NCBI GenBank assembly: GCA_017993235.1
Contig: JAGONC010000002.1
Span: forward strand, 44,683-108,682
Length of the DNA stretch: 64,000 nucleotides
Direction of reading: 5' to 3'
Source of the DNA: Lentimicrobiaceae bacterium
GTDB taxonomy: Bacteria; Bacteroidota; Bacteroidia; Bacteroidales; JAGONC01
This document shows positions 6,298 to 36,661 of this stretch, piece by piece (position 1 is the stretch's first letter; every line of letters starts with the position of its first letter). Both the position numbers and the translations under genes were made by a program. The notes below the pieces were generated by a model. It did no database searches, was not told the DNA's origin, and saw only the letters and a program-made list of their open reading frames with translations.

Positions 6298-6326
6298 AAA
6301 TGAGATAATAGATTATGAAATGATGT

Positions 6327-6988: not shown

Positions 6989-7031
<43 letters not shown>

Positions 7032-7078
7032 AAAAAAACGATGGCCCGGAAGAGAAGTTTTCCGGGCTATTATTTTTC
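7032..7078. terminator. Bidirectional hairpin terminator
   Basis: An A7 run is followed by the stem GCCCGGAA/TTCCGGGC (7044-7051/7060-7067), then TATTATTTTT. It could serve both the displaced tRNA fragment (+) and the convergent gene ending at 7099 (-). Confidence 0.7.
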
Positions 7079-7098
7079 GTTAACTGTGCGAACGCAGG

Positions 7099-10024: not shown

Positions 10025-12247
10025 TTATGGTATGAACATCATTTTCCATGTTCTGCAGTAGCCGTCAAGGGATACGATCAATAGATAGCAGCCCTTCGGA
10101 ATGTCGGGAGAATGGAGATCCAATGTGTTGGTACCCGGCTCAAGTACTGTGTTGCCTGAATCCATGAGCTGCCCCCTGATATCTGTCAAACGATAGTTGA
10201 TCCTGACTGACCTGGTTTGATTCCATTCAAGCAGGATTCTTCCGCCCTGGGGATCAGGCCAGACTGAAAGATGAGCGAAATGATCCTCACGGTTGATTCC
10301 GGTTGTGACAGAGAACTTATGGATAGAAGTTTCCATGATATTGCCACTCAGATCTTTAATATTACTCACGGTAAGTTCATAAGATCCATTCTGCAGGTTT
10401 GTAACGTTCAGGTAAACATTGCGTTTCATATTTACCTGCTGATTGGCATCCAGGACGCTGACGCCCTTGTTGACCGCATAATTCGATTCAGATTCTGCTG
10501 ATAGCGGATCGGGTGTTTCAGAAAACATAATCCGAATGGTGGTCGCGTTGATTACCTCCACCAGATCAACTGCCGGAGGAGTGACATCCACCTGGTGCAA
10601 TACATCCCTGTCGGACCTTAATTCGATGAACCAGGAGCTTCCCGAATAACTTACCGGTCCTGTCACCGTATATTGTTCTCCTTCCAGTGGCTGATACTCA
10701 CAGATGGCTGAGTTGTAAACCTTCAGGTAACCTGTACCATCATTGACGGTCCACATCCAGTCGTTGGAGTAATAATCATCCTCCGTACATTCCGCTTTAG
10801 GAACAGTGACCACCATCCCTTCATAGGATTCACTGATGGCATTACAGGTAACCGTGACGGGTTCGGGTGTGGTCATACCCCGTTTGACGGGGTAGTGATA
10901 AATGATATCATGCAGTTCGGTGACCTCTTCTGTTTCGGTGACGGTACCAGTGATGATGATGCTGTCGCCGGGATGCTGGTAACGGCTGGGATCCAAAACA
11001 CGGATCCCCGACCAGGGTTCGGAGCCCTGCTGAAGATAATAGTATTCTCCGAATGTTCCTGTAACGACACCGGTGGTGGTCACCTGCTGGTTCACCAGGG
11101 GTGATTCGTTCTGCAGTCCCTGGATCTCAGAGATGCTGGTGATCACACCTGTGTATTTATTCCGGACCTGAATGACATAGGTCACCGAAGCCGTCTGGTA
11201 AGTGCCATCGGAAGCCTCGATACGGTAAAATATCGACGTATTGTCCATCTGCCCTGTAATTTCTCCCAGGTAATGTCCGGCTATAATTTCCATTGGAAGG
11301 GTATGGTTGAGTTCATATCGCGACAGACCCCAGCACAAGGTAGCGGTGACAGGCTGGGAGCTGCCGGAAATATCCGCGCTGATGATCACTTCCGAGTTTT
11401 CTTCCGGAATCTCCGGGAACGCCTGAATATCGCTGATCTTCAACGGGTTTGCAGTTTCTCCTCCCCAGATCCACTGTGCAAATCCGGGATGATCAATAAA
11501 TGGATTCCTGTTCTTCTGCCAGGCAAAAATGACGTTATTCCTGTTCATCTCGAATGGATCCGGAGGGTCCTGGAGGTTCCATTTCAGCAGTGTCGACAGT
11601 TTGCCATGCTCAGGAGCCGGTGAGGTATTGACCGCATCTACGGCTTCCAGGTCGATTTCCCCATCATCGCCTTCGTAACGGACGGCCATATAGAAAATGA
11701 TCCGTGCAATATCACCCTTTTCGCTGTCACGGGGCTCCCAGGTGAAGTTGGTATAATAACAACCGATTGCTTCCAGGTGAGCGGTTCCGCCTTCATCAAA
11801 ATCCTTGTTGCCCTTGTCATTATTAACCGAAGCGTCGCAGGGTTTCAGGTTGTGCACATCGCTGTACATGGGAAGGATATCGGTGAAGGAGCCATGGGAC
11901 TTGGCCCACACATGCTCGCGGTTAAGCTGATTGTTACCGGTGCCATAATCATCATTGGGATGCGATGTACCTGTATAAACCAGGAGGACGTTGTCAGGAT
12001 CAGCGGGGTCCTGATCAGCGTACTTCATCATGTCTTTGGATGAAAAATAGGAAAATGGCTGATGCTCATCTATCAGGTCATGAAGGAAGGTCTTCAGTTC
12101 CTGTCCGTCTTTCCCTTCCGTCCCATTGTAAAAGCCTGAAGGCTGTGCCAGCAGTAGTGAATGAAACAGCAATGGCAGGGATACAAGGAGAAAAAGAATG
12201 GATTTTGGTGTGGTTGGTTTATTCATCATAAAGCTGCACATTGTCAA
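10025..12247 (-). CDS. Secreted endonuclease I-family nuclease with a T9SS C-terminal domain
   Basis: NREHVWAKSHG..SDVHNLKPCDASVNNDKGNKDF is the Endonuclease_1 motif. A signal peptide, central beta-rich modules and an Ig-like module (SNYAVNKGVSV) are present. The tail LSVWPDPQGGRILLEW..LTDIRGQLM..KGCYLLIV..WKMMF has the T9SS CTD pattern. The start may instead be M8 (12226). Confidence 0.8.
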   Translation of the reverse strand: MTMCSFMMNKPTTPKSILFLLVSLPLLFHSLLLAQPSGFYNGTEGKDGQELKTFLHDLIDEHQPFSYFSSKDMMKYADQDPADPDNVLLVYTGTSHPNDDYGTGNNQLNREHVWAKSHGSFTDILPMYSDVHNLKPCDASVNNDKGNKDFDEGGTAHLEAIGCYYTNFTWEPRDSEKGDIARIIFYMAVRYEGDDGEIDLEAVDAVNTSPAPEHGKLSTLLKWNLQDPPDPFEMNRNNVIFAWQKNRNPFIDHPGFAQWIWGGETANPLKISDIQAFPEIPEENSEVIISADISGSSQPVTATLCWGLSRYELNHTLPMEIIAGHYLGEITGQMDNTSIFYRIEASDGTYQTASVTYVIQVRNKYTGVITSISEIQGLQNESPLVNQQVTTTGVVTGTFGEYYYLQQGSEPWSGIRVLDPSRYQHPGDSIIITGTVTETEEVTELHDIIYHYPVKRGMTTPEPVTVTCNAISESYEGMVVTVPKAECTEDDYYSNDWMWTVNDGTGYLKVYNSAICEYQPLEGEQYTVTGPVSYSGSSWFIELRSDRDVLHQVDVTPPAVDLVEVINATTIRIMFSETPDPLSAESESNYAVNKGVSVLDANQQVNMKRNVYLNVTNLQNGSYELTVSNIKDLSGNIMETSIHKFSVTTGINREDHFAHLSVWPDPQGGRILLEWNQTRSVRINYRLTDIRGQLMDSGNTVLEPGTNTLDLHSPDIPKGCYLLIVSLDGYCRTWKMMFIP

Positions 12248-14015
12248 TACGGTAGGAGGAGGTCAGACCTGTATTACCGTTACCGTTGTACTTAAATCCG
12301 ATATGAGCAGTGCCGGAATAGGCCGACAGGTCGACAACGCCGGAAAAGATCCAGTCATGCTCGGGATCACTCTGTCCGGCCAGTATTGGATTAAGCTCCA
12401 CCCAGGTTGCACCCACGATATTGACTCCATTGAAATCCGTTGAGATCCAGACCGACAGGCCATCGTGGGTCCAGTAAGCCTGGGCACTTTCAAAGGTGAA
12501 TTTGGGACTGGTCATCGCATCCAGGTCGATGGGTGGTGTGATCAGCCAGCACTCATTCTCCTCATTGGAGTTAAAGGATGTTGCCTGTGCATATACATTG
12601 CTGTCAAATTCCTTTGCACGCCAGAGTCTGCTCCCGATCGTGGCCTCATTCAGCCAGCCTGACAGGGAGATATCCACGTCGTTCGACTGTGACTCAAAAT
12701 CTTCATTCATAGAGGTGACACCTCCACCTGCTCCGCTGGAGTTTACTATCACGTCATCGATCCGAAAGCTGGTGGATTCCGTACTGCTTCCCCGGTACCG
12801 GAAACCAATATAGTATATACCCGTATAGGATGACAGGTCAATGTTTCCGGAGGGAATGAATTCATGGTCAGGATCATGCTGATTTGCGATGCGGGCTTCC
12901 AGTTGCGTCCAGGAAGCGGAACCTACATCGGTGCCATTGAAGTCAGAGGAGATCCATACCGTGAGTCCATCGTTTGATGAATGGGCCCAGTAAGCCTTTG
13001 CGCTCGAAAATGTCAGGAATTTTGTTCCCTGGATACGGATGGGAGGTGTGATCAGCCATGCGATCATTTCGGACAATCCGGAATTATACCCGGAAGCCTG
13101 GGCATAGGTATTTCCATCGTATTCCTTGGCCTGCCATTTCCGGTCGCCTACCTCATTAATATTCAGCCATTTCTCAAGAACTATATCCGCGTCAGGTGTC
13201 GTGCTGCTGAAAGTTTCGTTGATTTCATCGACCGGTTCCACATCTCCTCCCCCACCTCCTTCGCATCGTTCACCATCAAGTGCCACTTCGTACAGCGTAC
13301 GTATATATAACTGATAATCAGCACCATACAGACTAATGATGCCTATAATGCTTCCATTTCCCTCCGGTATTTCGGTAGTGGCGAATGTGGCGTAGTTGCT
13401 GGTCCTGACAATCAACGAGTTGCCATCACAATCCTCCAGCATTCGGTTAGCAGAAGCATCCGCATCCGAATAGGTTTTACCCAGTTCCGTTTGCATGAAC
13501 TGCACACTGTCGAGCTCCACCAGGTGCGACTCATACCCCCCGGCCTGGATCTGGCTGATGGTTACCCGTTCCGGTGTGCGGTACCGCTGGTTGGCCAGAA
13601 TGATGATATTAGAATCATTATCTACGTTATCGATCTGATGGAGGCTGTTATAGGTCGAAAGGATGCAGTTTTTAAGGTACACGCGTATGGAATCCCCCAC
13701 GCGGAGTCCGCCAGATTCCAGAAGGTGAAGGTTCATCCCCCCCGTAGCATCCTGTATGAACGCACTCCGATAAATGTTGCCCGTCGTCTCATCCATGGTG
13801 ACCACAGCGTACAATGACTGGTCATCAGTAAAAGTATACGTTCCCTCGTCCTGGTACAGCTGATACAGATCCTCGATCGTTACCTGTTCACCCACAGGGA
13901 TCTGGTTGATGGGAGGTGCATCGAACTCCTGTTTAATGCAACCGGTGTGCATAAGCATTAATCCGGTGACGAGAAAACCGAAAATAACATATAAACGACA
14001 ATTCATCCTTGTCAT
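12219..14015 (-). CDS. Surface lipoprotein with a DUF5689-like N-terminal module and two choice-of-anchor-J-like domains
   Basis: A probable lipobox is present (LMHTGC). The N-terminal ~230 aa match the pattern I recall for DUF5689. Two homologous ~165-aa domains follow (..W-x-N-x-x-x-x-G-x-R-x-W-x-A-K-E-(Y/F)-D-x-N-x-YAQA..WLITPPI..W(I/V)S(S/T)DFNG..(R/Y)RID(D/N)V). Confidence 0.65.
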   Translation of the reverse strand: MTRMNCRLYVIFGFLVTGLMLMHTGCIKQEFDAPPINQIPVGEQVTIEDLYQLYQDEGTYTFTDDQSLYAVVTMDETTGNIYRSAFIQDATGGMNLHLLESGGLRVGDSIRVYLKNCILSTYNSLHQIDNVDNDSNIIILANQRYRTPERVTISQIQAGGYESHLVELDSVQFMQTELGKTYSDADASANRMLEDCDGNSLIVRTSNYATFATTEIPEGNGSIIGIISLYGADYQLYIRTLYEVALDGERCEGGGGGDVEPVDEINETFSSTTPDADIVLEKWLNINEVGDRKWQAKEYDGNTYAQASGYNSGLSEMIAWLITPPIRIQGTKFLTFSSAKAYWAHSSNDGLTVWISSDFNGTDVGSASWTQLEARIANQHDPDHEFIPSGNIDLSSYTGIYYIGFRYRGSSTESTSFRIDDVIVNSSGAGGGVTSMNEDFESQSNDVDISLSGWLNEATIGSRLWRAKEFDSNVYAQATSFNSNEENECWLITPPIDLDAMTSPKFTFESAQAYWTHDGLSVWISTDFNGVNIVGATWVELNPILAGQSDPEHDWIFSGVVDLSAYSGTAHIGFKYNGNGNTGLTSSYRIDNVQLYDE

Positions 14016-14025
14016 AAGTCCTGTA

Positions 14026-16542
14026 TTATAATCTGAATGTCAAATTGATATAAAATGTTCTTCCAAAAAGATAAAAATATCTTGGAGGAAATTTATCGAT
14101 GTTATCCGGGTCGTACCTGAATTGCTCATAACCGCCGGTTGCCAGATCGGTTGTATTCAGAAGGTTATTGAAACTCAGGTTGAGACCTATATAATACTTT
14201 TTGATCTTCCATGATTTCCCTCCATAGAGGTCAATGGTGTAACCATTCTTAAGTTTTTCCTGGTTCAGCAGTTGATCCAGGCGAACATCACCTTCGGTCA
14301 GATTGGCTACTGCTTCCTGGGTCCGGCGGTCAGGATTGACCTCAAGATAGGTATCACCATAATAATTTACATTGCATCCCACCCACCAGTATCGTGAAGA
14401 ACTGTATTTCAATCCGCCTGAGGCAATGGTTTGCGGCATTCCTCCAATGTAATAGTTTTTAAGGTACACGGTCCGGTTCGACAGGACCTCGGAACTATTA
14501 TCCTCCGAAATGGTTGCATTCGGCCGGGATGAATAATAAAACTCACCCATCCCAAAAGCGGCGGTCAACGAAAGCGCTGTGGTCAGGTTGACCTCCGCAC
14601 CGAGTTCGAAGCCGGCATGAATCTCATCAACGTTGGTCATCTGATAGTTGACAAACGTATTGAGGTCTTCATGATAAAAACTTCTCGACCAGGTTTGATC
14701 ATTGAGGACGGTATAATAGAAGGTAAGCCTGCCTTTCGCCCTGTTGGTTCTGAGGAAGTAGCTGGCCTCTCCTGAAAAGATCTGTTCGCTTTTAAGATCC
14801 GGAACCACATGATCCCTGGTTCTTACGGAGACATAGGAATTCCAGAAATAGGGTGCCCGGGTCAGGTAGGCTGCATTGGCAACCAGATAATTTCTTCCGT
14901 TGATCTTATAGGTAAGGCCTGTTTTGATTCCGAAGTTCTCAAATTGCTGTTTTTCAGAATCCCCGTAGGAATCATCCGGAAAATGACCGTTCTGCATGTT
15001 CCCTGTGCGCCAGAAGGACGTATAGGAAGCTGTCCCGGAAATAAAGAAGTCAAATCGGGCATAGGAAAAATTACCCTGTGCAAACAGGGAGTAGGTGTTG
15101 ACATTGGCTGTATAATCATGGGAATACCGGTCGCCTTCCTTTACGATCCTGTTGGGATGGCGCAGGTCGCTCTGCGACTCATCGGTAATGATCATGGGAT
15201 CCTGATCTGCATATTTATCCACATCCAGCCAGAAATCACCGCCCAGCAGATCATTCACGGTGTTAAAGTGGAATCCCTTGTACCAGTTAAGACGGATTCC
15301 TGCATGCAATACCATATGATCGTTGATATTTTCCTGAAGCCGGGAGGTAAATCCAAACTGGCTCTTATCACTGTGACGATCCTCGACGATATATTTCGAT
15401 CGGTTCCCTGTCACCGTATTGCCTGAAATACCATCCGCGTCATTGACCGTATAAAGGAACTTGCTGTTGGCAAAATAGAATGCATCCCAGTTGATCTGCC
15501 GGTAAGCCTCGTCGTTTTCCCAGAGGGATGTAAGGATGTCAGCCTGTTCCTGGTCTCCCTCGTCCAGATAATAGCTGGGAAGGTTCCGGTAGTAATCAGG
15601 CCGTGGATCGCTTGCCTCGGTCCAGTTCAGTGCCGTATTTCCACCTCTGCCGAAAGTCCAGAATAGTGCCGAAGTAAGCCTGGTTTTCGGATTGATCGTC
15701 CAGTAATGATTCAGCAGCAGCATGGGCTGATGGTAATTGGAGACCCGGCTGTTACGTTTTTCCCCGTTCTGGAATCCCCAGTAGGGATTATAATAATTGC
15801 TGCCTGCAAGGTCATTGGCTTCCTGAACGGCCAGCCCATTCTGGCCGCGTTTTGTGGGTGCTCCGAAGCCGGCAAATCCTATACTGTGGGATGGTGAGAA
15901 TTCCTTTTCAATACTGACAAAATAAGACCAGGCATCATAGAACGTACCCTCGACGTATCCTTCCTTCGACCATCTTCGGGAGCCTGAAAGGGTAACCGCC
16001 CAGCCATTCTTCATTTTTCCCGTCGAAGCAATCACCATGATCCTATTCCGGTACGACTGATTGGTCATGGAGTAGGTAGCTTTTGCACCGCGGCTGTACT
16101 GTGATGCGCGAACATCCAGGTACGTCAGCCCGCCAATTCCCTCGAAGCTAAAATCGTTGCCTGATAATCCCAGGTAGTTTTCCTGGCTCCTGAATGCATC
16201 GTTCAAACCACCCCAGGACGACCAGAAGGCACGGCCGGTCTCCATATCATTCATCGGCACGCCATTGATCATCACCTGGGTATTCTCCGTGTCGTACCCG
16301 CGCATCCGGAACCGGGCCGAGCCAAAGGTATACCCTGCTGTAGACGCATAAATGTCCCGGGAGGATTGTAATAATCCGGATATATCCTGTCCCTGGTCAT
16401 AACCGTCGAGTTCTGACTGCGAAAGTGTGACCGTTGGCAATGTAGTAACAATTCTATCATTCACCTGGCTGGTGTCCACCTGACCATAGGTAACAGCAGA
16501 AAGTAAAATATTGATTAACAGTATAATAAACCATTTTTGCAT
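14026..16542 (-). CDS. TonB-dependent outer-membrane receptor
   Basis: A signal peptide is followed by a plug region (..FRMRGYDTENTQVMINGVPMND..). A long beta-barrel with alternating Y/G/N-rich strands ends in ..FYINLTFRL. Confidence 0.85.
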   Translation of the reverse strand: MQKWFIILLINILLSAVTYGQVDTSQVNDRIVTTLPTVTLSQSELDGYDQGQDISGLLQSSRDIYASTAGYTFGSARFRMRGYDTENTQVMINGVPMNDMETGRAFWSSWGGLNDAFRSQENYLGLSGNDFSFEGIGGLTYLDVRASQYSRGAKATYSMTNQSYRNRIMVIASTGKMKNGWAVTLSGSRRWSKEGYVEGTFYDAWSYFVSIEKEFSPSHSIGFAGFGAPTKRGQNGLAVQEANDLAGSNYYNPYWGFQNGEKRNSRVSNYHQPMLLLNHYWTINPKTRLTSALFWTFGRGGNTALNWTEASDPRPDYYRNLPSYYLDEGDQEQADILTSLWENDEAYRQINWDAFYFANSKFLYTVNDADGISGNTVTGNRSKYIVEDRHSDKSQFGFTSRLQENINDHMVLHAGIRLNWYKGFHFNTVNDLLGGDFWLDVDKYADQDPMIITDESQSDLRHPNRIVKEGDRYSHDYTANVNTYSLFAQGNFSYARFDFFISGTASYTSFWRTGNMQNGHFPDDSYGDSEKQQFENFGIKTGLTYKINGRNYLVANAAYLTRAPYFWNSYVSVRTRDHVVPDLKSEQIFSGEASYFLRTNRAKGRLTFYYTVLNDQTWSRSFYHEDLNTFVNYQMTNVDEIHAGFELGAEVNLTTALSLTAAFGMGEFYYSSRPNATISEDNSSEVLSNRTVYLKNYYIGGMPQTIASGGLKYSSSRYWWVGCNVNYYGDTYLEVNPDRRTQEAVANLTEGDVRLDQLLNQEKLKNGYTIDLYGGKSWKIKKYYIGLNLSFNNLLNTTDLATGGYEQFRYDPDNIDKFPPRYFYLFGRTFYINLTFRL

Positions 16543-16658
16543 GATATCCAGCGCCTAAAAGTAGATTTTATATTCCGTACAAAATTAAGATTATTCCTTC
16601 AGGTATTCGAGGGAGTGACCACAAAGTACTAATTTTACAACAGATTCACAAGACTATT

Positions 16659-17723
16659 ATGGAATCAGTCACTAAATCCCTGCTCAGGTTCATTATCCTC
16701 TTCCTGATTTTCATTCCCGGACTGGCCGTTGATTCGTTTTCACAGGAGGATAAGCAATACCGGTTGGGCTGTATTGCATTTTACAATCTTGAGAACCTTT
16801 TTGATACGATCAATGATCCCTCCACCAATGATGAAGAATTCCTTCCTGACGGCAGGAACGCCTGGGATGGAAAACGGTATGCTGATAAACTGAAGCAGTT
16901 ATCTTCGGTCATTGAACGTATCGGGATTGATCTGAATCCGGATGGACCTGCAGTCATCGGTGTTTCTGAGATTGAGAACCGGGCGGTGCTGGAAGACCTT
17001 GCACAGACTGAATCGTTAAAAAACAGGGATTATCAGGTTGTCCATTTTAACTCTCCCGACCGGCGTGGAGTTGATGTGGGACTGCTATACCAGCCAAAGT
17101 ATTTTCAGCTTTTGCATGCCACGAGCCACAGGCTGGTCATTCCAGACCAGCCTGATTACCGTACGCGGGACCAGCTGGTCGTTTCAGGCATCTTTGACGG
17201 TGACACCCTGTATCTGATTGTCTGTCACTGGCCATCCCGCAGCAGTGGCGAAAAAGTGACCCTGCCTTACCGGATTGCGGCAGCCGGCCTGAGCCGGACG
17301 ATCGTTGATTCCATCCTGGGATTCTCCCCTGATGCCAGGATCATCCTGATGGGGGATCTGAACGATAATCCGGTCAACAAAAGTGTCGTCAGGGTACTGG
17401 GAAGTACGCCTGACAAAGAACTGGCAGTCGGCAACTTTCTGTACAATCCGATGACCAGCCTTTACAGGAAAGGTATCGGATCCACTGCCTGGAGAGATAC
17501 CTGGAGCCTGTTTGACCAGATGATCGTATCGCCCTCACTTGTGCACGGAGATCCGAATTCTTACCGGTTCTATACCGTCCGGATCTTTAACGAACGATTT
17601 CTCACCCAATCAGAGGGTGAATATAAAGGATATCCCTACCGGACTTTCGGCAGCGGTGTTTATCTGGGGGGGTATAGTGACCATTTTCCGGTGTATCTTT
17701 TCCTGTATAAAGAAGACCGATGA
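16659..17723 (+). CDS. Exported endonuclease/exonuclease/phosphatase (EEP) family protein
   Basis: A signal peptide is present. FYNLENLFD near the N-terminus, GDLND and the C-terminal YSDHFPV are the EEP catalytic motifs. Confidence 0.8.
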   Translation: MESVTKSLLRFIILFLIFIPGLAVDSFSQEDKQYRLGCIAFYNLENLFDTINDPSTNDEEFLPDGRNAWDGKRYADKLKQLSSVIERIGIDLNPDGPAVIGVSEIENRAVLEDLAQTESLKNRDYQVVHFNSPDRRGVDVGLLYQPKYFQLLHATSHRLVIPDQPDYRTRDQLVVSGIFDGDTLYLIVCHWPSRSSGEKVTLPYRIAAAGLSRTIVDSILGFSPDARIILMGDLNDNPVNKSVVRVLGSTPDKELAVGNFLYNPMTSLYRKGIGSTAWRDTWSLFDQMIVSPSLVHGDPNSYRFYTVRIFNERFLTQSEGEYKGYPYRTFGSGVYLGGYSDHFPVYLFLYKEDR

Positions 17724-27317: not shown

Positions 27318-27351
27318 GTGAGGGGGCAACAATGGTTTGCCCCCTCATCAT

Positions 27352-27400: not shown

Positions 27401-30400
27401 TTAATGTGCAATCACCACTGATTTGGTAACCTTATCGCCATTGGTTTTGGTAAACTCAACCATATAGGTACCCGTGGCGTAGGAAGTTGTATTGAGCTGG
27501 ATCAGCTTGGAATCGACTACGTTGATGGCATCCATCACCTGACCGATATAATTTATGATCCTGATCTCTTTCACATCATTTGTGACTGTCAGGTTCACAT
27601 AATTGGTGGCCGGGTTCGGATAGATCTGAATCATACCATCGGCAATCGGGTCATCAACACCGACAATGATGGTCATCGTAATCGGTATTTCTGAGCTGAA
27701 GCAACCCAGTTCTTCTGTAATATTGATCATGGCGTTCAGCACGTCACCTGGTTCAAAGAGTCCTTCCGGAGCAATGAAGACAGGTACTTCGACGAACTGG
27801 CCTGGTCCGAGTGTACCGTTGTCGACACCCAGTGAAGCCCATGTAATCTCTGGTGTAATTGCACCAACCCATCTGAGAACACCATTACCATCATTCGATA
27901 TCGTGATGTACTCGGTGGTCACACCATATGGTGCCAGATCTACCACGATCTGACCCGGATCGGTTACAAGGATAGGCTGGTTCAGCGCGAAGTTCTTCAC
28001 CAGATCTCCGGTGATTGCCAGGTTGTAGACCACGATTGGATTGAAGCAGTTGGCACTGCAGGTAACATCGTAGGTGCCGGGTTCGACATCGACGAAGTAT
28101 TCACCTGCGGCATTCGTATAGACCGGTTCATAGGTTTCAACAGCGATCTCAGCTCCCTCGATGGGGGCACCGCCTGCCAGTTCCGTAACCGTTCCATACA
28201 GCGTGTAGGTGATGGATTCGTAAACCTTGATATTATCTACGTACCACCAGTTAATGTTATAACTATCCAGACCGTTGGCCCTGAACCGTACCTGTGTCAG
28301 TTTGCCCAGAGCGGAGGTGGAGATGTTATATTTGTAAGTAGTCCATGGAATATCCTCCGTATCGTTAAACTCGGCAACTTCAACCCATGAGGTGCCATTC
28401 CAAACTTCAATGGTCATGAAGTTTTCGTTCGCATAACCATATCCACTCAGGAAGAGGTCGAACTTCAGCGTAACGTTGGTGGTGGCTGATGTTGCATCGA
28501 TCCACGGGCTTACCAGCGCCATTGAATAGTCTTCCACTGCTGGCGACCAGGCAAAAGCGGCTGTGGGTAATGGATTACCGTCATTTTCATTGAACATCCA
28601 GTTTGCACTGATCGCAGGATCGAATGTCCAGCCCTGAGCATCGAAGGATGCCTCGTCCCATGGTTCAAAGAACGGCAGTACAGCAACGGTCAGGTCGTAC
28701 ATTCCAATGTCGAGGACCGTGGTTTCCTGATGTTTGATGACCACACCCGGGATAGTTTTGGCATTGAATCCTTCTGCAACGCATGACACGATAAACGTAC
28801 CTGCCGGTGCGTTGGCCAGGTTGTATTTACCATCATAACCTGTCACAGCAGAGAATCCACCCGGAAGACTGACCGTAGCACCGATCACCGGAGCACCCGT
28901 CTGGGCATTGAATACATAGCCCTTCAGGGTACCGCGGCCCGTTACGGTCACGGAAGCAGGACCTTCGGCCCAGGATTCACCTTCGGTATAGATTGCTGAC
29001 ACATAGTACTCATAGGTACCGGGATACAGGCCGGCATCTGTGTACGAAGTATCCGGAGTCGGGATATAGGCAACATTATTACCATTTCTCCACAGGTTGT
29101 AGCCCATCAGACCTCTGGTATCGTCATTCGGAGCGTAAGCCGGATTATCAGCTTTTACAACGGCCAAGGTGGTATTGCCCGGGCTCCTGACTTCCTGTCT
29201 TACGATAGGAACAACCGGAGCATAGTTGGCGACTTCCGTGGAGACATAGGCTTCTACGTTGAAATCACCGTCAATGCCAAAATCAGACATCAGGTTATAC
29301 CAGGCTCCCTCATAGTAGATCTTGTTACCCTTGCCATCGTAATTGGCAACATCATCCAACCCTGCGGGATATCCATCGGCAACCTGAACATACTCAACAC
29401 CGAACCAGAGTTCCTGTGTGGCATCGATCAGGTAAGGATCATCCAGGATTATGGTGTTCCAGTCATTGATAACCGGGGCCGGTACTGCCTGGCTGACAAC
29501 TTCCATTGCAGCTCCTTCACCAACCCAAACCATGACACTATAAGTAGCGATCGTGGTAGCCTCAGCCGGTACGAACCTGATCTTGGTCAGGTACATGCCG
29601 TCGTAGGGCAGAAGGTCGGCAGGTGTGAATCTTGCAGCGGCATCCCAGATTGTTGGTTCCGTAATTCCGGTCAGACCCACTCTGGCGGCATAGATACCAT
29701 CGTCCCATGCGATCCATTCGCCGGTAGGTGCACCCGGAGGACTCCAGGTCAGCAGCACGTCGTCGTTTTCCAGCAGGAAGGCCTGCAGGTTGACCGGAGG
29801 TTCGAGGTCACCACCAACATTGGCGATGAACGGAGGATCGAACGGACAGCTCTGTCCGAAGTCATATACAGCTGTGACATTGTATTCGAACAGACCACCC
29901 GGTGAGCAGTTATCAATATAAACTGTGGATGCGATGGGCACCGGTGTCAGTTTCACATTATCCTTCCATACATAGAATCCCTGCAGGATGAAGTCACCAC
30001 CTCTGCTGCCGGGTACTTCAATCTGGCCGTCGCCAAGAATGATATCACCTGCGGGCGGAGTAACTCCGGAAGGTTTCATGCTGATGACCGCTGACGGGTC
30101 GATGGTCTTGTTTGAACGCGGAACCGTAACAGGTTCAAGTACCTGCGTTCCAATGCTGATACCATACACCGTGGCACGGATCATCAGTTGATCATAGGAT
30201 AGTTCTTCCACCCATGAATCACCCGCGACTCTATTATACGATCTTCCCTGGCCGCCTGATGTTTCGTCAATACCGGTCGGCGGACAGTTCGGATAGGTTC
30301 CTATCTGCATGTGCGACAGGTAGAAATCACCGTCATTGATCGTAATTCCAAGGCTGGAAATGTCGAACACAACCCAGTTATAGTTCTCAGGAGTCACATC

Positions 30401-33400
30401 CATAGAACCGAGTTCAGTTCCCGGGAATCCACCAGGACCGTCATCGTCATAGACGATGATTCTGAACGGATTCAGGATATCTCCGGCCGGCCATGTGCCG
30501 TCCCAGATATTCATATGGAACTTGAGGAGATCACACGGATAGCCCTTGGGGGAGAACCTGACGGCAAACTCGCTGTCCACAACGTTCCATGCAACTGCAT
30601 TTTCCCCAACTCCATCGTCATACTTGATCAGGTATTCGACCGGGGTGATACCTGCCGGTAACTCCCAGTTCAGAATAACGTTCATTCCATTGACTGCGCC
30701 TGTGAAATTCACCGGTGGGGCGAAGAAGTCGCAGGTATAGTAGGTGAACGGTACTTCGAGGATGATGGATTCTCCACCGCTATAAACGGCCTGAACACCG
30801 GCTACATAGAATTGACCGAGGACCAGGTCGGTATACGTATAGGTCAGCTCCTGTGTGAAGGCAAGCTGGATGCCATTCAGGTATACATTGTATCCCTCCA
30901 GGGATCTTGCAGAACTCGGGGCACGACCTTCCGGCATAACACCGACAGAAATCTTGATTTCATCAAGGCTGATACCCATTCCTGATGTTTCCGGAGAATC
31001 ACCCGCGAACCCAATCTGGTAGGTACCGGTTGGCATGGGCAGGTTGATCTCTTCGTGACGCCAGGCAGGAATATCCTCAAAGTATCCTGTAAGGGTCTTC
31101 CATATGGCATTGGGTGCAGTCTTGTAGTAAATCTTCAATTCATCCTGGCCAGCACCCGTTGGTTGCGCGTGCCAGAAGCTCAGTTTGGGCACCATGGCAT
31201 TGGCTAGATTGATCGGAGGTGTGATCAGACGTGTGATCGCAGTACTTCCGACAAAATAGGCATTGTACTGACCTTCATGGGCTCCTTCCGGTACACCCTG
31301 TGCACCACCGGTTCTGATAACCCATGGGGTTTGCGTGTCACTGAGGTATTCCTGCGTCCATCCTGTGGGGATAACACCTCCTTCGAAGCCTTCTTCAAAA
31401 GCAGTCTGGTATTCAAGTACCGGAGGACACCAGGTGGCAACGCCGGTCATGTTGTCAACAAAGAAGCATGCTGGTGGCAGGAAGACCTCCTGCAGTTGCA
31501 CATTCAGCGTGATGTCAGCATAGATGGCAAGTCCAGACAATGAGTAAGGATTGTAATATTCCTTTGTGATATCCAGTTTATAGACACCATCCCATACAAC
31601 CTTATTGAAGAACACAACGCCGTTATCAGGAACAACAGCTGTGTAGTAGTAGTTGGGATTGCCATCTTCTCTGGCAAGGATAACCTGTGCACCGGTTGCC
31701 GGTGAACCATCGTTTGTACGGACATTAATGGTCACTGAATGTTCAAATCCATTGGGTACGAGATTGGAGAAGGAGGGTTCGGATACATTATATGAGTAGT
31801 TTGCTGTTACTGCATATCTGTACCATCCCTTTGCATACGATGTCCAGTCGGTATCCAGGTAGCTGGTTTCCGTAACTTCGGCCTTTTCAACCCATGCGGC
31901 AGGATTGGTTTCCTCACCCTGTTTTACCAGGTAAACCGAGTAGCTTTCAATGTCTCTGGAAACTTCGCCTTCTTTCACGGGTTTGAAGATGCCGTCACCA
32001 ACTGTATACGTTCCGCTGAGAGCTTTCGGTGTATTCATTGTGAGGGAATTGTCTCCCAGTTCTCCAATGTTCACGGTACGCGTATTGTCGGTGTAACCCA
32101 GGATGCTCATGCCTTTTTCTTCATCATAGACAAAGGCGCGCATCATGAAATCAGCAAGTTCGGAGACCACCCAGGGTCCATTTTCCGATACGTCGCGTGA
32201 ATAGCTTCTATAAACCATTGCATCTTCATCGATTGCGATGGGTACGCAGTTCGGGTAGTCGCCGCCCTGAACCATGGCTACATAGAAGTCACCGCTGGCT
32301 AGAGCGATTGGATTTTCTGCAAAACTGACATCCACCCAGCCATAGGCAAACGGTTCGACCATGGTACGGCCCAGTTCTGTGCCGGGCATTCCGTCAGGAC
32401 CATTATCAGCATAGACAACAACTTCAAAGGGCTGCAGGTTTACACCTGTGGGCCATGTACCGTCGTAGATGTTGATCTGGATTCCGTAGATCTCGGCCGG
32501 ATAAGCCATCGGCGTAAAGCGCAATGCGTGCATGCTGCCCGCTTTTTGCCATGCCGTTACGTTATCGGCTTCGTTATCATCATAGAAGATCGTGTAGAAA
32601 TCGCTGTATTCATACCAGTCAACCAGTACCTCCGTGTGGGCTGGATTACGCGTAGCCGTCACACCGATCACCGGATACGGGAATTCATACAGTTCAAAAT
32701 TCACTTCAAGATTCTGTTCATCTGCCAGTACCACACCTTCCAGTACCTGTGATTCGAAAGCGTCGGCTTCCACGGTCATGGTGTATGTATCTTCCGTCAC
32801 ACCTTCCAGGATATAGGCACCGTTACTACCCGTATAGGCAGTCCAGGTACCCCACGAACCCGTAGCGGTAACCAGTGCTCCTTCGATAGGTACAAACTGG
32901 CTACCGAACTTGGAGACGGTACCGTAAATGGTGCCTTCACCATTAATATACACCGTGGTGGGGCCTTCCTTCATTGACTCGCCCGGGGTTGGGTTATCAT
33001 AAACGGCTGACACTTCATAGTCATAGTAGCCAGCCAGTAAATCCTGGTCGAAATATTCCTGTGTGCCACCTGAGGTGGGAGCTACATTGGCTATATACGA
33101 TCCATTCCTGTAAATATTGAAGGAGAGCAGTTCACCATATACCGGTTCGCGCGTTCCACCGTTGTCATAGTTTGCTTTTCCCAGTTTCACTTCCCCGCTC
33201 AATGCCTGACCGTTTGGTGGATTGATGGAGGTAGATGCATTCGCGTCAAAGGATTCGGTTGACGAAGGATAGATCATGGTAGGTTCGAGAACATAGTTAC
33301 CCTCAGTGTTTCCAAACACACCCGCGCGGATCATGTACAGATCGTAACTTGGCCCCCCCCATGCTGAGCCGACGGCATGGTCAAGACCACGTCCGGTTCC

Positions 33401-36400
33401 GGATGAACTGGAGCTGATACCTGTCGGGGCACAGTTTGGATATGAACCCAGCTGCATGTGTGCAAGGTAAAAATCACCTGAGGTGATCGTAATGCCCAGA
33501 TCAGAAATATCAAAGGTCACCCAGTAGGCAGATGTCGGAGTGACATCTTTCTGTCCCAGCAATGTGCCCGGGTATCCGCCTGAACCATCGGCTGCATAAA
33601 TCCTGATGCCGAGGGGTACATAGATATTACCTGCCGGCCAGGTACCATCCCAGATGTACATCTGGAATGATGACAGTGTGCAGGGCCATGCAAGCGGTGT
33701 AAAGCGGACGGCGGTTTCTCCTTGCGGGCTGTTCCATGCCATGGCATTATCGGCATTGCCGTTGTCGTAAATGATCCAGTATGCTTCACCCTGCCCTGAG
33801 GGTAAACTCCAGGTCAGGTGTGCGGTATGTCCCACATCTTCTCCCTCAAGGTTGGATGGAGGAGGCAGAAAGGCGGAAACCCACGTATAGTTGATCCTAG
33901 GTGAATGTCCGCTGGCATAGTAGCAGCTAACACCACTCACATAAGTCTGTCCCCAGTTAACGGAATTGGGATCATACTGGAAGAATGTTTCGGTCGTGAA
34001 CCCTGAGATGAAGTCATCCAGGTATACCGTAAATCCGATGGGATTTTTCTCGCTGTAATTCCAGAGCCGCACATTATCCACTCCCCAGTAGTTGATGTTA
34101 TAGCAATCCGCTCCGTAAGCCTTGAACCGGATCTGGAGATTTTCATTGGCATAGTCTTCGACCTGATCAACGCAATGGGTCCAGGCAATGCTGCCTGAAT
34201 TGACAAAGTCGCGCAGGGTAACCCATTCTGTTCCATCATATACTTCGATGGCCAGGTGCTCCTGATTGGTTGATGCATAGTCATTCAGGTACACATCATA
34301 TTCCAGTGTAAGCTGAAAAGTATAGAACTTGCAATCATACACCTGGCTGGTCAGTGTGTGCGTGTAATTTGTCACAGAAGGTGACCAGTTGAAATATGCA
34401 CAAGGTGCAGGATTACCAAGACTTGTATAATACGCCCAGTTGGAACCGGAGGGATCCTCCGTCCACTCATCATACTGTGCCTGGTTCTGGAAAGGATAGA
34501 AGCACAATTCGGTCATTCCGCCCGGTTTTTCCCATGTGGCAAGCAACGTCAGCGGATCCACATACAGATTCTTTGGCGGGTCAGTTATTTCCTGGAGCTC
34601 GATATCCCACACCACATTTCCGTTCAGGACATAATCATTGAGTGTATAGATATCGAATCCCGGCATTATGATCGTCAGGTCGTAGGTGCCGTTCCATGCT
34701 CCCTTGAATTCAACAACACCCGTTGGGCCGGCGACGGCACTGTAGCTGTGTTCCGGCAGGCCATCCTGGTTGATGAAGGTAACATAGGCGCCTTCCGGGC
34801 TCTGGTTTGAGGAAAGTGTGATATTGATGGTAACATCGGATGTCCAGTTCTTACCCAGCAGGTTGGATAGGGTAGCAGGTGAGTTGCCGGCATCGTAGAC
34901 AGCAACCACTGCCCAGCGGTATCCGCCATTGGGAATGGAGATCCATGCATTATCGTAATATGTGGTGTTGGTTACATAGCCTGCCAGGAGGGTCCAGTTG
35001 GCTGGATTGCCTTCATCACCTTCATGGAGGCGGTAGACCATATAATGAGACAGCGCCCTGGGGGCATCGCCGCCTTCTACTGGTATGTATAAGCCTTCGC
35101 CTTCATAACCGGTTTTCATTTTGGGTGCTGACAGATAATTGCACTCTCCTCTCGGAGGCCGGGTACCCTGGTGGATCACCGACTTGTCAGCGCGGGCTCC
35201 CGCTCCGCCCGGACTGGAAACGACCGTACGGATCATGAAATCATTGAATGCAGATTCGTACCAGGGACCGGTTCCGAATTTCTGATAGCTGCGGAACACC
35301 GGATTGGACTCGTCAATGGCGATGGGCGCGCAGTCCGGATAGGAACCACCCTGCTCCATGGCAACGTAGAATTCACCACTGGTGATGACCACCGGTCTGT
35401 CGCTGATATCCCACAGGACCCAGCCTGTTTCTTCCGGTGTCACATCCACCTCGGCCAGTTTGGTTCCCGGCATGCCGTCGGCACCGTCATCGTCGAAAAT
35501 TGCGATGGTAAACTCCTGAAGAATGTCACCACCTGCAGGATATGTGCCATCACCAATATTGACAGAGCCATAGTGAATGGTGCAGGGATATCCGTCCGGA
35601 GTGAATTTCAGGGCATTGTAATTGCCCGGAGTCTGCCATGCAATCATGTTTTCAAATACGCCATCATCATAGATGATTTCGTAGTATCCTTCCGGAATGC
35701 TCCAGGTGACTTTGACCACGTTCACATCTGCCTGGACGATCTGAGCCAGGACACCACTGACAGGAACTTTCGCTTCACTAAGTTCAATATCTGCTTCGAC
35801 AGTTCCTTCCGGGGGAATGATCACTTCAACAGAACCAATGTCATACCCTGCCTTGTTGGCTTCAACCGTGGTATAGTTACCCATCGTTCCTATGGTCAAG
35901 GAATAGTCACCTGATCCATCGGAGAACGAAAAGACCTCCCCAAAAATGCTGTAGGCTCTCATCAGGGCTCCGGATATGGGAAGATCGGTCATTGCATCGG
36001 TTACCGTACCGGTAACGGTTCCTTCCGTTGGCGGGAGGAAAAATACCCTTAACCGGGGAACATAGCTGTAATAATTGCCGGTTGGAAACGGTGGGGGAAT
36101 GGGAGAATCAAAATACCTGTACACCGTTTGGTTGGTCGTACCGGTAAAACGCTCCCAGTAAACATAGCGGTTTCCGCTGTACTGCCCGTCCAAGTTACGC
36201 CAGGCGATGGCCAGATTTCCCTGCCCTGAGTACAGGAAGGGTGCACTGAGCGTAAATTCATTGACTCCGACAAACGGGAGGTAATCTCCCGCCCAGACCA
36301 ATGTCCATCCATCGGCGATCATGGCCGCGTCATTATCAGGGAAAGTGTTGGTAGTCCAGGCACTTTCGCTGATCTCCTTCATCCAGCATGTCAGATTCAG

Positions 36401-36661
36401 AATGGGATTGGACCCACCGTACTGCGTGGTGCCGAAATACCCTATCTTGGTAATGAGCTTGGGCATGTTATCACCGAAATCTGTGGCTTTATAAATACAC
36501 TTGGAATAACCATAGTTATAATAACCATAGAACGGGATATAGGACACTGTCCCTGAGTAGATCCCAACGTCAACTACCATCTGGGCACCAATCTGAAATC
36601 CGAAAAACAATGAAAACATGGTTATCATTGTTAATCTTGCAAAAAGAGTAACCTTTTTCAT
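27401..36661 (-). CDS. Giant (3086 aa) modular T9SS cargo protein of unknown function, adhesin-like
   Basis: This is a single uninterrupted ORF with a signal peptide. It contains 5 copies of a ~180-aa Cys-containing module, 3 MAM/choice-of-anchor-J-like modules, CarboxypepD_reg-like and FN3/Ig-like modules, and a T9SS CTD. I recognise no catalytic motif. Confidence 0.9.
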   Translation of the reverse strand: MKKVTLFARLTMITMFSLFFGFQIGAQMVVDVGIYSGTVSYIPFYGYYNYGYSKCIYKATDFGDNMPKLITKIGYFGTTQYGGSNPILNLTCWMKEISESAWTTNTFPDNDAAMIADGWTLVWAGDYLPFVGVNEFTLSAPFLYSGQGNLAIAWRNLDGQYSGNRYVYWERFTGTTNQTVYRYFDSPIPPPFPTGNYYSYVPRLRVFFLPPTEGTVTGTVTDAMTDLPISGALMRAYSIFGEVFSFSDGSGDYSLTIGTMGNYTTVEANKAGYDIGSVEVIIPPEGTVEADIELSEAKVPVSGVLAQIVQADVNVVKVTWSIPEGYYEIIYDDGVFENMIAWQTPGNYNALKFTPDGYPCTIHYGSVNIGDGTYPAGGDILQEFTIAIFDDDGADGMPGTKLAEVDVTPEETGWVLWDISDRPVVITSGEFYVAMEQGGSYPDCAPIAIDESNPVFRSYQKFGTGPWYESAFNDFMIRTVVSSPGGAGARADKSVIHQGTRPPRGECNYLSAPKMKTGYEGEGLYIPVEGGDAPRALSHYMVYRLHEGDEGNPANWTLLAGYVTNTTYYDNAWISIPNGGYRWAVVAVYDAGNSPATLSNLLGKNWTSDVTINITLSSNQSPEGAYVTFINQDGLPEHSYSAVAGPTGVVEFKGAWNGTYDLTIIMPGFDIYTLNDYVLNGNVVWDIELQEITDPPKNLYVDPLTLLATWEKPGGMTELCFYPFQNQAQYDEWTEDPSGSNWAYYTSLGNPAPCAYFNWSPSVTNYTHTLTSQVYDCKFYTFQLTLEYDVYLNDYASTNQEHLAIEVYDGTEWVTLRDFVNSGSIAWTHCVDQVEDYANENLQIRFKAYGADCYNINYWGVDNVRLWNYSEKNPIGFTVYLDDFISGFTTETFFQYDPNSVNWGQTYVSGVSCYYASGHSPRINYTWVSAFLPPPSNLEGEDVGHTAHLTWSLPSGQGEAYWIIYDNGNADNAMAWNSPQGETAVRFTPLAWPCTLSSFQMYIWDGTWPAGNIYVPLGIRIYAADGSGGYPGTLLGQKDVTPTSAYWVTFDISDLGITITSGDFYLAHMQLGSYPNCAPTGISSSSSGTGRGLDHAVGSAWGGPSYDLYMIRAGVFGNTEGNYVLEPTMIYPSSTESFDANASTSINPPNGQALSGEVKLGKANYDNGGTREPVYGELLSFNIYRNGSYIANVAPTSGGTQEYFDQDLLAGYYDYEVSAVYDNPTPGESMKEGPTTVYINGEGTIYGTVSKFGSQFVPIEGALVTATGSWGTWTAYTGSNGAYILEGVTEDTYTMTVEADAFESQVLEGVVLADEQNLEVNFELYEFPYPVIGVTATRNPAHTEVLVDWYEYSDFYTIFYDDNEADNVTAWQKAGSMHALRFTPMAYPAEIYGIQINIYDGTWPTGVNLQPFEVVVYADNGPDGMPGTELGRTMVEPFAYGWVDVSFAENPIALASGDFYVAMVQGGDYPNCVPIAIDEDAMVYRSYSRDVSENGPWVVSELADFMMRAFVYDEEKGMSILGYTDNTRTVNIGELGDNSLTMNTPKALSGTYTVGDGIFKPVKEGEVSRDIESYSVYLVKQGEETNPAAWVEKAEVTETSYLDTDWTSYAKGWYRYAVTANYSYNVSEPSFSNLVPNGFEHSVTINVRTNDGSPATGAQVILAREDGNPNYYYTAVVPDNGVVFFNKVVWDGVYKLDITKEYYNPYSLSGLAIYADITLNVQLQEVFLPPACFFVDNMTGVATWCPPVLEYQTAFEEGFEGGVIPTGWTQEYLSDTQTPWVIRTGGAQGVPEGAHEGQYNAYFVGSTAITRLITPPINLANAMVPKLSFWHAQPTGAGQDELKIYYKTAPNAIWKTLTGYFEDIPAWRHEEINLPMPTGTYQIGFAGDSPETSGMGISLDEIKISVGVMPEGRAPSSARSLEGYNVYLNGIQLAFTQELTYTYTDLVLGQFYVAGVQAVYSGGESIILEVPFTYYTCDFFAPPVNFTGAVNGMNVILNWELPAGITPVEYLIKYDDGVGENAVAWNVVDSEFAVRFSPKGYPCDLLKFHMNIWDGTWPAGDILNPFRIIVYDDDGPGGFPGTELGSMDVTPENYNWVVFDISSLGITINDGDFYLSHMQIGTYPNCPPTGIDETSGGQGRSYNRVAGDSWVEELSYDQLMIRATVYGISIGTQVLEPVTVPRSNKTIDPSAVISMKPSGVTPPAGDIILGDGQIEVPGSRGGDFILQGFYVWKDNVKLTPVPIASTVYIDNCSPGGLFEYNVTAVYDFGQSCPFDPPFIANVGGDLEPPVNLQAFLLENDDVLLTWSPPGAPTGEWIAWDDGIYAARVGLTGITEPTIWDAAARFTPADLLPYDGMYLTKIRFVPAEATTIATYSVMVWVGEGAAMEVVSQAVPAPVINDWNTIILDDPYLIDATQELWFGVEYVQVADGYPAGLDDVANYDGKGNKIYYEGAWYNLMSDFGIDGDFNVEAYVSTEVANYAPVVPIVRQEVRSPGNTTLAVVKADNPAYAPNDDTRGLMGYNLWRNGNNVAYIPTPDTSYTDAGLYPGTYEYYVSAIYTEGESWAEGPASVTVTGRGTLKGYVFNAQTGAPVIGATVSLPGGFSAVTGYDGKYNLANAPAGTFIVSCVAEGFNAKTIPGVVIKHQETTVLDIGMYDLTVAVLPFFEPWDEASFDAQGWTFDPAISANWMFNENDGNPLPTAAFAWSPAVEDYSMALVSPWIDATSATTNVTLKFDLFLSGYGYANENFMTIEVWNGTSWVEVAEFNDTEDIPWTTYKYNISTSALGKLTQVRFRANGLDSYNINWWYVDNIKVYESITYTLYGTVTELAGGAPIEGAEIAVETYEPVYTNAAGEYFVDVEPGTYDVTCSANCFNPIVVYNLAITGDLVKNFALNQPILVTDPGQIVVDLAPYGVTTEYITISNDGNGVLRWVGAITPEITWASLGVDNGTLGPGQFVEVPVFIAPEGLFEPGDVLNAMINITEELGCFSSEIPITMTIIVGVDDPIADGMIQIYPNPATNYVNLTVTNDVKEIRIINYIGQVMDAINVVDSKLIQLNTTSYATGTYMVEFTKTNGDKVTKSVVIAH
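27404..27640 (-). other. T9SS type A C-terminal sorting domain of the giant protein (aa 3008-3086)
   Basis: The domain reads DGMIQIYPNPATNYVNLTV..IRIINYIGQVM..LNTTSYATGTYMVEF..KVTKSVVIAH. Confidence 0.85.
29240..29803 (-). repeat. Module A copy 5 (aa 2287-2474, the most divergent copy)
   Basis: The sequence EWIAWDDG..ARFTPADL..W..ILDDPY..ELWFGVEY..GYPAG..FNVEAYV is collinear with copies 1-4 at the protein level. Confidence 0.5.
30164..30724 (-). repeat. Module A copy 4 (aa 1980-2166)
   Basis: The copy reads YLIKYDDGVGENAVAW..AVRFSPKGYPC..NIWDGTWPAG..VYDDDGPGGFPGTELG..VTP..WVVFDIS..GDFYLSHMQIGTYPNC..LMIRATV. Confidence 0.7.
32126..32674 (-). repeat. Module A copy 3 (aa 1330-1512)
   Basis: The copy reads YTIFYDDNEADNVTAW..ALRFTPMAYP..NIYDGTWPTG..VYADNGPDGMPGTELG..GDFYVAMVQGGDYPNC..FMMRAFV. 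Confidence 0.7.
33317..33859 (-). repeat. Module A copy 2 (aa 935-1115)
   Basis: The copy reads YWIIYDNGNADNAMAW..AVRFTPLAWPC..YIWDGTWPAG..IYAADGSGGYPGTLLG..VTP..WVTFDIS..GDFYLAHMQLGSYPNC..YMIRAGV. Confidence 0.7.
35216..35755 (-). repeat. Module A copy 1 (aa 303-482)
   Basis: The copy reads YEIIYDDGVFENMIAW..ALKFTPDGYPC..GDGTYPAG..IFDDDGADGMPGTKLA..VTP..WVLWDIS..GEFYVAMEQGGSYPDC..FMIRTVV. Confidence 0.7.

Follow-up and report, generated by a model that had tools for sequence, protein, structure and literature searches.

The open reading frame (ORF) at positions 27401 to 36661 on the minus strand of a 64,000-nucleotide stretch of Lentimicrobiaceae bacterium contig JAGONC010000002.1 (the whole stretch is called the window here) encodes a giant protein of 3086 aa, which we read, with a probability of about 0.6, as a nonenzymatic, multivalent surface-binding protein exported by a type IX secretion system (T9SS), that is, as an adhesin or a substrate-capture scaffold. 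After Sec export, the protein would cross the outer membrane by means of a type-A C-terminal sorting domain (CTD) and, by analogy with other type-A cargo, would probably be anchored covalently on the cell surface. There it may form a long chain of about 24 β-sandwich units, in which eight jelly-roll modules would be the working parts, namely, five copies of a module with a predicted lectin-like, galactose-binding-domain-like fold (A1 to A5) and three MAM/choice-of-anchor-J-like modules (B1 to B3). Seven of these jelly-rolls, all except B3, appear to hang from the loops between strands B and C of FN3 domains, and CarboxypepD_reg Ig-like domains would act as spacers. Such an array would rely on avidity to bind a polymer, a particle, or another cell, which is why we favor the two roles named above. 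The kind of protein, its secretion route, and its build from repeats are ordinary, and the current understanding of the T9SS or of adhesins is left unchanged; what is new is a large unnamed domain family, module A, with a confident structural model, and a probable nested topology of FN3 domains.

An intact ORF with predicted T9SS export signals

The gene is a single ORF with an ATG start, encoding 3086 aa followed by a stop codon. The exact protein and five near-identical proteins (3072 to 3087 aa) are on record from other assemblies, and a collinear homologue of 3089 aa shares 32 to 42% identity with it, so that a sequencing or assembly artifact is unlikely. A split or artifactual ORF was considered and rejected in view of the near-identical proteins, and the first-pass annotation of this DNA was right to treat the ORF as one protein. 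Environmental Bacteroidota commonly have giant T9SS cargo proteins, most of whose names say little; this one and its near-identical counterparts, from metagenome-assembled genomes (MAGs) of Lentimicrobiaceae/Bacteroidales, are listed at NCBI as “carboxypeptidase regulatory-like domain-containing protein,” a name taken from the spacer domain.

Read by eye, the N terminus (MKKVTLFARLTMITMFSLFFGFQIGAQ) looks like a Sec signal peptide, with an n-region KK..R, a hydrophobic core, and “IGAQ” at its end; it would comprise aa 1 to 26 (MKKVTLFARLTMITMFSLFFGFQIGA; positions 36584 to 36661, minus strand, as for all features of the protein given below). At the other end, aa 3013 to 3086 (27404 to 27625) form a T9SS type-A CTD, as had been called before: Por_Secre_tail (PF18962, Pfam) matches aa 3013 to 3083 with 36.4 bits (cut-off 27), and the type-A sorting domain model TIGR04183 (NCBIfam) matches with 25.7 bits (cut-off 23). 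Two further ORFs within the window, at 10028 to 12247 (with a subthreshold CTD) and 61822 to 63051, encode CTD-bearing proteins, an indirect sign that the organism uses the T9SS. Judged from its sequence, the giant protein is therefore classed as T9SS type-A cargo, and it would most naturally be placed on the cell surface. The ORF at 61822 to 63051 (plus strand) encodes a small T9SS cargo protein of 410 aa, in which a PKD domain is accompanied by a Por_Secre_tail match of 51.1 bits.

The sorting domain also bears on a comparison with SprB and RemA of Flavobacterium, which, like the protein described here, are very large, repetitive, nonenzymatic T9SS cargo proteins of Bacteroidota and are used for attachment. 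A giant repetitive cargo protein from this phylum could accordingly be pictured as a gliding-motility adhesin that is moved along the surface by the gliding machinery. However, SprB-type adhesins carry a type-B CTD, whereas the CTD here matches the type-A model; in addition, SprB and RemA have another repeat family, no SprB-repeat match was found in Pfam, the window holds no gliding genes, and the module A family occurs in MAGs of Cloacimonadota and Ignavibacteria as well. With no link to gliding seen here, we regard this possibility as the most remote of those considered and retain the reading of a surface-binding protein.

Module A is a large, autonomous domain family

The hidden Markov model (HMM) of the family finds four copies of module A in the giant protein, with E values of 1e-65 to 1e-79: A1 (aa 298 to 484; 35210 to 35770; E 7.9e-79), A2 (aa 932 to 1118; 33308 to 33868; E 6.8e-65), A3 (aa 1328 to 1514; 32120 to 32680; E 8.9e-79), and A4 (aa 1980 to 2168; 30158 to 30724; E 6.7e-73). 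They share 41 to 54% identity with one another and have 43 invariant columns; in A1, an FN3-like hairpin of strands A and B (aa 298 to 324) precedes the jelly-roll core (aa 325 to 484). The first-pass annotation had counted five copies defined by one string of motifs. Four of these are clear, and the fifth, A5 (aa 2287 to 2474; 29240 to 29803), misses that string, and the strict family HMM reaches only its first 40 residues (i-E 0.045). Nevertheless, a profile built from the close relatives of A5 alone aligns with the module A profile over 169 columns in hhalign (probability 96.3%, E 1.5e-9), and by this profile comparison A5 is a true distant paralog that represents a divergent sister subfamily.

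The same annotation had labeled the module as Cys-bearing, a label that does not carry over to the family as a whole. The “YPC...YPNC” Cys pair is present only in A1, A2, and A4 (residues 2043 and 2126 in A4), A3 has a single Cys, and A5 has none; across the family, the two columns hold Cys in 27% and 40% of the members. The pair was rejected as a defining feature of module A because only a minority of the family has it.

The earlier statement that module A could not be placed in a known family is borne out. None of A1 to A5 matches a Pfam (2025 copy) or NCBIfam 20 model at E<=10, apart from a whisper of DUF4082 (E 0.13 over 38 residues, 12.6 bits against a cut-off of 28.4) that is not evidence of membership, and the module A profiles find no PDB sequence at E<=0.1, as that of the A5-type subfamily finds none. 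Three specific candidates were rejected: the cleaved-adhesin domain, since A1 to A5 have no PF07675 match at E<=10; a relative of MAM, for which hhalign gives a probability of 15 to 18%; and a known carbohydrate-binding module (CBM), since no CBM family in Pfam matches. Searches of the literature on T9SS proteins with CarboxypepD_reg/MAM domains, on the T9SS of Lentimicrobium, and on nested FN3 domains turned up no description of the module A family.

The module is nevertheless far from peculiar to this protein. When 1.84 billion cluster representatives were searched exhaustively with HMMER, 1450 proteins passed E<=1e-3, of which 196 also passed E<=1e-30, counted at 50% clustering and most of them long; A4 alone, as the query of a word-indexed homologue search, brought up no relatives, which reflects the limited sensitivity of that search, since the profile search gave 1450. 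In 47 relatives whose partner domains were scanned, CarboxypepD_reg is present in 39, Por_Secre_tail in 21, and Reelin subrepeat-B in 10, with Laminin_G_3, GEVED, and others in a few. A genome scan with a four-sequence alignment located the module in MAGs of Bacteroidales, Lentimicrobiaceae, Marinilabiliales, Cloacimonadota, and Ignavibacteria, and the relatives that could be placed are T9SS-type surface proteins. Mini-proteins that consist of the module A core and a CTD alone also occur. Module A is thus a large, autonomous domain family.

We tentatively suggest, at less than even odds, that module A together with the A5-type subfamily is an undescribed ligand-binding jelly-roll family in T9SS-type surface proteins of uncultured anaerobic Bacteroidota, Cloacimonadota, and Ignavibacteria, displayed in FN3 B-C loops as the MAM-like modules are. 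Were this to hold, a new lectin or CBM family would be joined by a recurrent “jelly-roll-in-FN3” building block of giant bacterial adhesins. If the surface-binding reading is right, a formal definition of the family would help to annotate thousands of proteins found in anaerobic digesters and sediments, and module A would offer a specific target for binding studies of the way in which uncultured fermenters become attached to particles or to one another.

Predicted fold of module A and its conserved loops

The AlphaFold2 (AF2) model of A4, computed from an alignment of 44 sequences, is all-β with 13 strands and has a predicted local distance difference test (pLDDT) value of 93.5 and a predicted template modeling (pTM) score of 0.85; an earlier run with the four copies from the window only (pLDDT 59.5) was discarded. 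In a Foldseek search against the PDB, the two best matches are chains of Cwp84 of Clostridioides difficile, with E values of 6e-4 to 8e-4, template modeling (TM) scores of 0.59 to 0.61, and 12 to 13% identity. Weaker matches include the BMP9 prodomain, APC10, the Eph ligand-binding domain, PHR, a xylan-binding module, and the KP-43 C-terminal domain, of which APC10, the Eph domain, and PHR belong to the same structural class, the galactose-binding-domain-like clan; phage tail-fiber and minor-tail proteins in a viral library score similarly to the PDB matches. No cleaved-adhesin structure is among the top 50 Foldseek matches. The AF2 model and the Foldseek matches therefore assign module A, at the level of a predicted structure, to β-sandwiches of the broad lectin or galactose-binding-like class, without a close solved relative. 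The structural check that the first-pass annotation had proposed has thus yielded a confident β-sandwich, with Cwp84 as its best and only weak match.

Cwp84's lectin-like domain (PDB 4ci7 and 4d59; residues 335 to 497) resembles module A, as modeled, in being a β-sandwich of about 165 aa in a cell-surface protein, but module A profiles against the PDB detect no sequence relationship between the two. It is described as a calcium-binding putative carbohydrate-binding domain whose structural neighbors are CBMs, PHR, and related folds (PMC4089489). In Cwp84, the closest solved fold is packed onto a cysteine protease whose active-site cleft it shapes, which raises the question of whether module A might be a cryptic enzyme or an enzyme-accessory domain, for instance, one that positions substrates for a protease, as proposed for the Cwp84 domain. 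The conserved Asp, Gln, Arg, and Ser of the module A family would suit such a role, as would the location of one mini-protein relative next to a large T9SS subtilase gene. Unlike Cwp84, however, which belongs to a Gram-positive S-layer setting and carries the domain fused to its protease, none of the 47 scanned relatives of module A contains a peptidase or any other enzyme domain; the giant protein likewise has neither an enzyme Pfam domain nor an HExxH, GDSL, or similar catalytic motif, in keeping with what had been noted from the letters alone, and no association with enzymes is evident around the genes for three other mini-protein relatives. We judge an enzymatic or accessory function to be very improbable and the nonenzymatic binding role to be better suited to these data.

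Gene neighborhoods of four small module A relatives share no theme. The mini-protein next to the subtilase (P0146, module A plus CTD only; locus L001, 9293 to 13954) adjoins a gene for a 1553-aa T9SS subtilase with Peptidase_S8 and MBG domains and lies downstream of genes for starch-degrading enzymes; the association with a subtilase is not seen at the loci of the three other mini-protein relatives.

The conserved positions of module A, in module numbering, are D36, D37, W46, Q140, D153, R161, S162, Y163, and R183. Many of its near-invariant residues have polar or aromatic side chains and fall within predicted loops (YDDG, DGTWP, DDDGxxGxPGT, Q, D, and RSY), a pattern that suits a conserved site better than a pure spacer. 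It also bears on an alternative to ligand binding, in which the protein is a passive structural surface coat or spacer, S-layer- or fibril-like, and the modules only build a long protease-resistant fiber with no specific ligand. That all domains are β-sandwiches, that no enzyme domain is present, and that the gene sits in a housekeeping neighborhood, with nothing pointing to a ligand, would all agree with a coat. Yet the polar and aromatic loop residues stay near-invariant across more than 1000 clusters, and the module also exists as a single-domain secreted protein (A core plus CTD); taken together, loop conservation and the single-domain form make a mere spacer role of module A hard to explain. 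Moreover, MAM, choice-of-anchor J, and galactose-binding-like folds are typically interaction modules. A passive coat appears unlikely, though less so than the gliding and enzymatic alternatives, and a surface-binding protein remains the favored reading.

Jelly-roll modules appear to be inserted in FN3 domains

The segments that follow the A and B modules had been annotated as FN3 modules. They are indeed FN3-related, but they are incomplete: they cover only positions ~29 to 79 of the Pfam fn3 model, corresponding to strands C to G, with scores of about 14 bits that stay below the threshold. The missing A-B hairpin is found upstream of the preceding module, as each A module opens with a hairpin (“PPxNLxAxxxxxVxLxWxxP”) that resembles FN3 strands A and B; some members of the module A family lack it and start directly at the core motif “YxIxYDDG.” When the hairpin and the downstream C-G piece are stitched together, the Pfam fn3 score rises and the match widens to positions 2 to 80. 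The stitched A5 reaches 27.3 bits (cut-off 25; positions 2 to 79) compared with 14.7 bits for its C-G piece alone, the stitched B2 scores 18.8 bits against 14.1, and the stitched A4 scores 15.9 bits where the piece alone gives no match; the B2 and A4 values remain below the cut-off, and A1, A2, and B1 have no Pfam fn3 match even when stitched.

At the level of the family, a stitched A profile from 22 proteins finds 93 solved FN3 sequences and aligns with them end to end, among them titin (E 4.6e-20) and 3mpc_A (residues 7 to 77, 40.3 bits), whereas a control profile of the C-G piece alone matches 9 solved sequences and aligns with 3mpc_A from residue 33 only (28.5 bits). Similar to the stitched A profile, the stitched B profile matches solved FN3 domains end to end. 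The two parts also travel together: hairpin and C-G piece are found together in 108 out of 132 cases, compared with 1 out of 6 where the hairpin is missing (Fisher p 0.0016), and the gap from the end of a B module to the C-G piece is only 6 to 19 residues in 83 cases. Within the giant protein, B3 serves as an internal control, having neither a hairpin before it nor a C-G piece after it.

Since the pieces comprise strands C to G only and lack an A-B hairpin that stands upstream of the A or B module, the jelly-rolls are probably inserted in FN3 B-C loops, and the domains probably follow a nested, not a linear, order. We hold it to be likely, on the strength of these alignments, that each jelly-roll with both a hairpin and a C-G piece sits as an insert within the loop joining strands B and C of an FN3 domain. 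If so, the way in which such proteins are split into domains would need to be corrected.

Domain architecture and an ancient tandem duplication

The signal peptide is followed by an N-terminal domain (aa 27 to 212; 36026 to 36583) that has no match in Pfam, NCBIfam, or the PDB, a PDB profile search included. Domains of this type (“VEIGTGT...YS.SQ.IY”) occur in 38 of 209 relatives, always at the N terminus, and one makes up a mini-protein that also carries a CTD (P0211); when the domain was used to search for homologues, only five unnamed fragments came back. It is a second unassigned family beside module A. At the other end of the chain, an Ig-like domain without a Pfam assignment (aa 2888 to 3004; 27650 to 28000) stands ahead of the CTD.

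The remainder of the chain consists of jelly-roll modules, FN3 pieces, and CarboxypepD_reg spacers. Over the whole protein, CarboxypepD_reg (PF13620) scores 150.9 bits in four stretches (Pfam cut-off 32.3). Taken segment by segment, spacers 3 (aa 1244 to 1324; 32690 to 32932), 5 (aa 2579 to 2655; 28697 to 28927), and 6 (aa 2820 to 2885; 28007 to 28204) exceed the cut-off with 50.1, 46.1, and 43.7 bits; spacer 1 (aa 213 to 296; 35774 to 36025) falls below it with 28.6 bits, as do the CarboxypepD_reg-like spacers 2 (aa 611 to 690; 34592 to 34831; E 1.7e-4) and 4 (aa 1643 to 1723; 31493 to 31735; E 1.1e-4), both weak matches of 22 to 23 bits. FN3 pieces with strands C to G follow A1 (aa 541 to 608; 34838 to 35041), B1 (aa 872 to 931; 33869 to 34048), A2 (aa 1176 to 1241; 32939 to 33136), A3 (aa 1572 to 1641; 31739 to 31948), B2 (aa 1917 to 1975; 30737 to 30913), A4 (aa 2222 to 2283; 29813 to 29998), and A5 (aa 2512 to 2577; 28931 to 29128), the last of which is the one that passes the Pfam fn3 cut-off once stitched to its hairpin.

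All three MAM/choice-of-anchor-J-like modules that had been recognized earlier stand. The anchor of the assignment is B2 (aa 1727 to 1906; 30944 to 31483), which has an A-B hairpin in front and belongs to the family by curated thresholds: scanned alone, it scores 32.6 bits with PF00629 (cut-off 26.4) and 45.7 bits with the choice-of-anchor J model NF038128 (cut-off 30), and in the whole-protein Pfam scan, MAM covers aa 1765 to 1905 with 28 bits (cut-off 26.4). B1 (aa 693 to 868; 34058 to 34585; hairpin plus jelly-roll) and B3 (aa 2660 to 2815; 28217 to 28684; MAM-like) have no direct match to PF00629 or NF038128, but iterated profiles (E 6e-24 to 1e-6) and hhalign (100%) show that they are homologous to B2.

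Repeats were mapped by BLAST of 120-aa windows against the whole protein. Two extended matches run along almost one diagonal, aa 213 to 713 against 1242 to 1747 and aa 870 to 1222 against 1917 to 2267. The super-repeat unit of ~1030 aa has the order CarboxypepD_reg-A-FN3-CarboxypepD_reg-B-FN3-A-FN3. Unit 1 (aa 213 to 1241) begins with spacer 1 and ends with the FN3 piece after A2, unit 2 (aa 1242 to 2286) begins with spacer 3 and ends with the FN3 piece after A4, and a partial third unit (A5, FN3 piece, spacer 5, B3) follows. The two full units align with 34.9% identity over 1052 columns (E 3e-163); the tandem duplication of about 1000 aa proposed by the first-pass annotation is therefore real, with its phase starting ~90 aa earlier, at the CarboxypepD_reg domain. 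As had also been noted, the copies are well diverged in DNA, where three short blastn matches of 38 to 253 bp with 68 to 79% identity are left.

In a neighbor-joining tree of A modules, A1 and A3 form one subtype and A2 and A4 another. A1, A3, and A4 share 56 to 64% identity with their positional equivalents in other proteins, compared with 45 to 53% with their own paralogs, and because they are closer to equivalent copies elsewhere than to paralogs here, the ~1030-aa tandem duplication is ancient. The present layout would have arisen by tandem duplication of this unit; many permutations of the A...B theme are found among the relatives.

Relation to known surface adhesins and weight of the evidence

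Close parallels within the T9SS include the gingipain/HagA “cleaved adhesin” proteins of Porphyromonas, which are also type-A cargo with repeated jelly-roll adhesin modules at the surface. Gingipain-type proteins differ in their protease domain, which the giant protein lacks, and the kinship does not extend to the modules: module A has no match to cleaved adhesin PF07675, and B2 alone approaches it, below the threshold (17.7 against 21.4 bits). On our reading, the giant protein works like multimodule T9SS adhesins such as HagA/gingipain, SprB, and RemA while standing outside their domain families. The earlier proposal of an adhesin or polymer-binding scaffold agrees with the lectin-like predicted fold and with the enzyme-free relatives; the binding of a ligand is something that we infer, and the gene neighborhood adds nothing to it.

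Several points weigh against this reading. No ligand and no binding site were found for the modules, the genes around the ORF are housekeeping genes, and the neighborhoods among relatives are inconsistent. The match to Cwp84 is weak (TM ~0.6, 12 to 13% identity), the Foldseek output does not say which part of Cwp84 is aligned, and its lectin-like domain has never been shown to bind a sugar, as its authors stress (PMC4089489). The nesting of A and B modules in FN3 domains is suggested by stitched sequences and co-occurrence, three of the six CarboxypepD_reg calls (taken segment-wise) and most single FN3 calls are below the Pfam thresholds, and the signs of T9SS use come from the 64-kb window.

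Genomic surroundings

The neighbors of the giant gene encode Mfd, phosphofructokinase, an ABC-F ATPase, aldehyde dehydrogenase, ribosomal protein L21, and seryl-tRNA synthetase. The Bacteroidetes -7 promoter consensus is TAnnTTTG, and a TAtaTTTG motif lies 37 nt upstream of the ATG. A terminator-like hairpin with an 11-bp stem and 7 G-C pairs (27319 to 27347, minus strand) is located 54 nt past the stop codon, with a T-rich tail after it. Two antisense ORFs on the plus strand within the gene, at 35171 to 35914 (247 aa) and 30311 to 30661 (116 aa), are most likely no more than mechanical side effects of a long coding sequence.

Elsewhere in the window, positions 1 to 8000 have a low GC content (0.33 to 0.41, compared with 0.46 to 0.51 elsewhere), contain a tRNA-Met gene at 968 to 1040, and encode a GNAT acetyltransferase, a polysaccharide deacetylase, and a Fib_succ_major-domain protein; this stretch may be an acquired island. 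The region from 10028 to 17720 looks like a locus for the uptake of extracellular DNA: it encodes an Endonuclease_1 protein, whose CTD is the subthreshold one mentioned above (10028 to 12247, minus strand), a DUF5689+DUF5017 protein (12222 to 14015, minus strand), a Plug/TonB-dependent receptor (14029 to 16542, minus strand), and an Exo_endo_phos_3 nuclease/phosphatase (16659 to 17720, plus strand). Between 46045 and 57951 lie genes for two AMP-binding enzymes (one with a carrier-protein domain), KAS III, a short-chain dehydrogenase, and a GT2 glycosyltransferase, followed by those for a Polysacc_synt flippase and an MBOAT acyltransferase, and this region looks like a locus for the modification of lipids, glycolipids, or surface polysaccharides.

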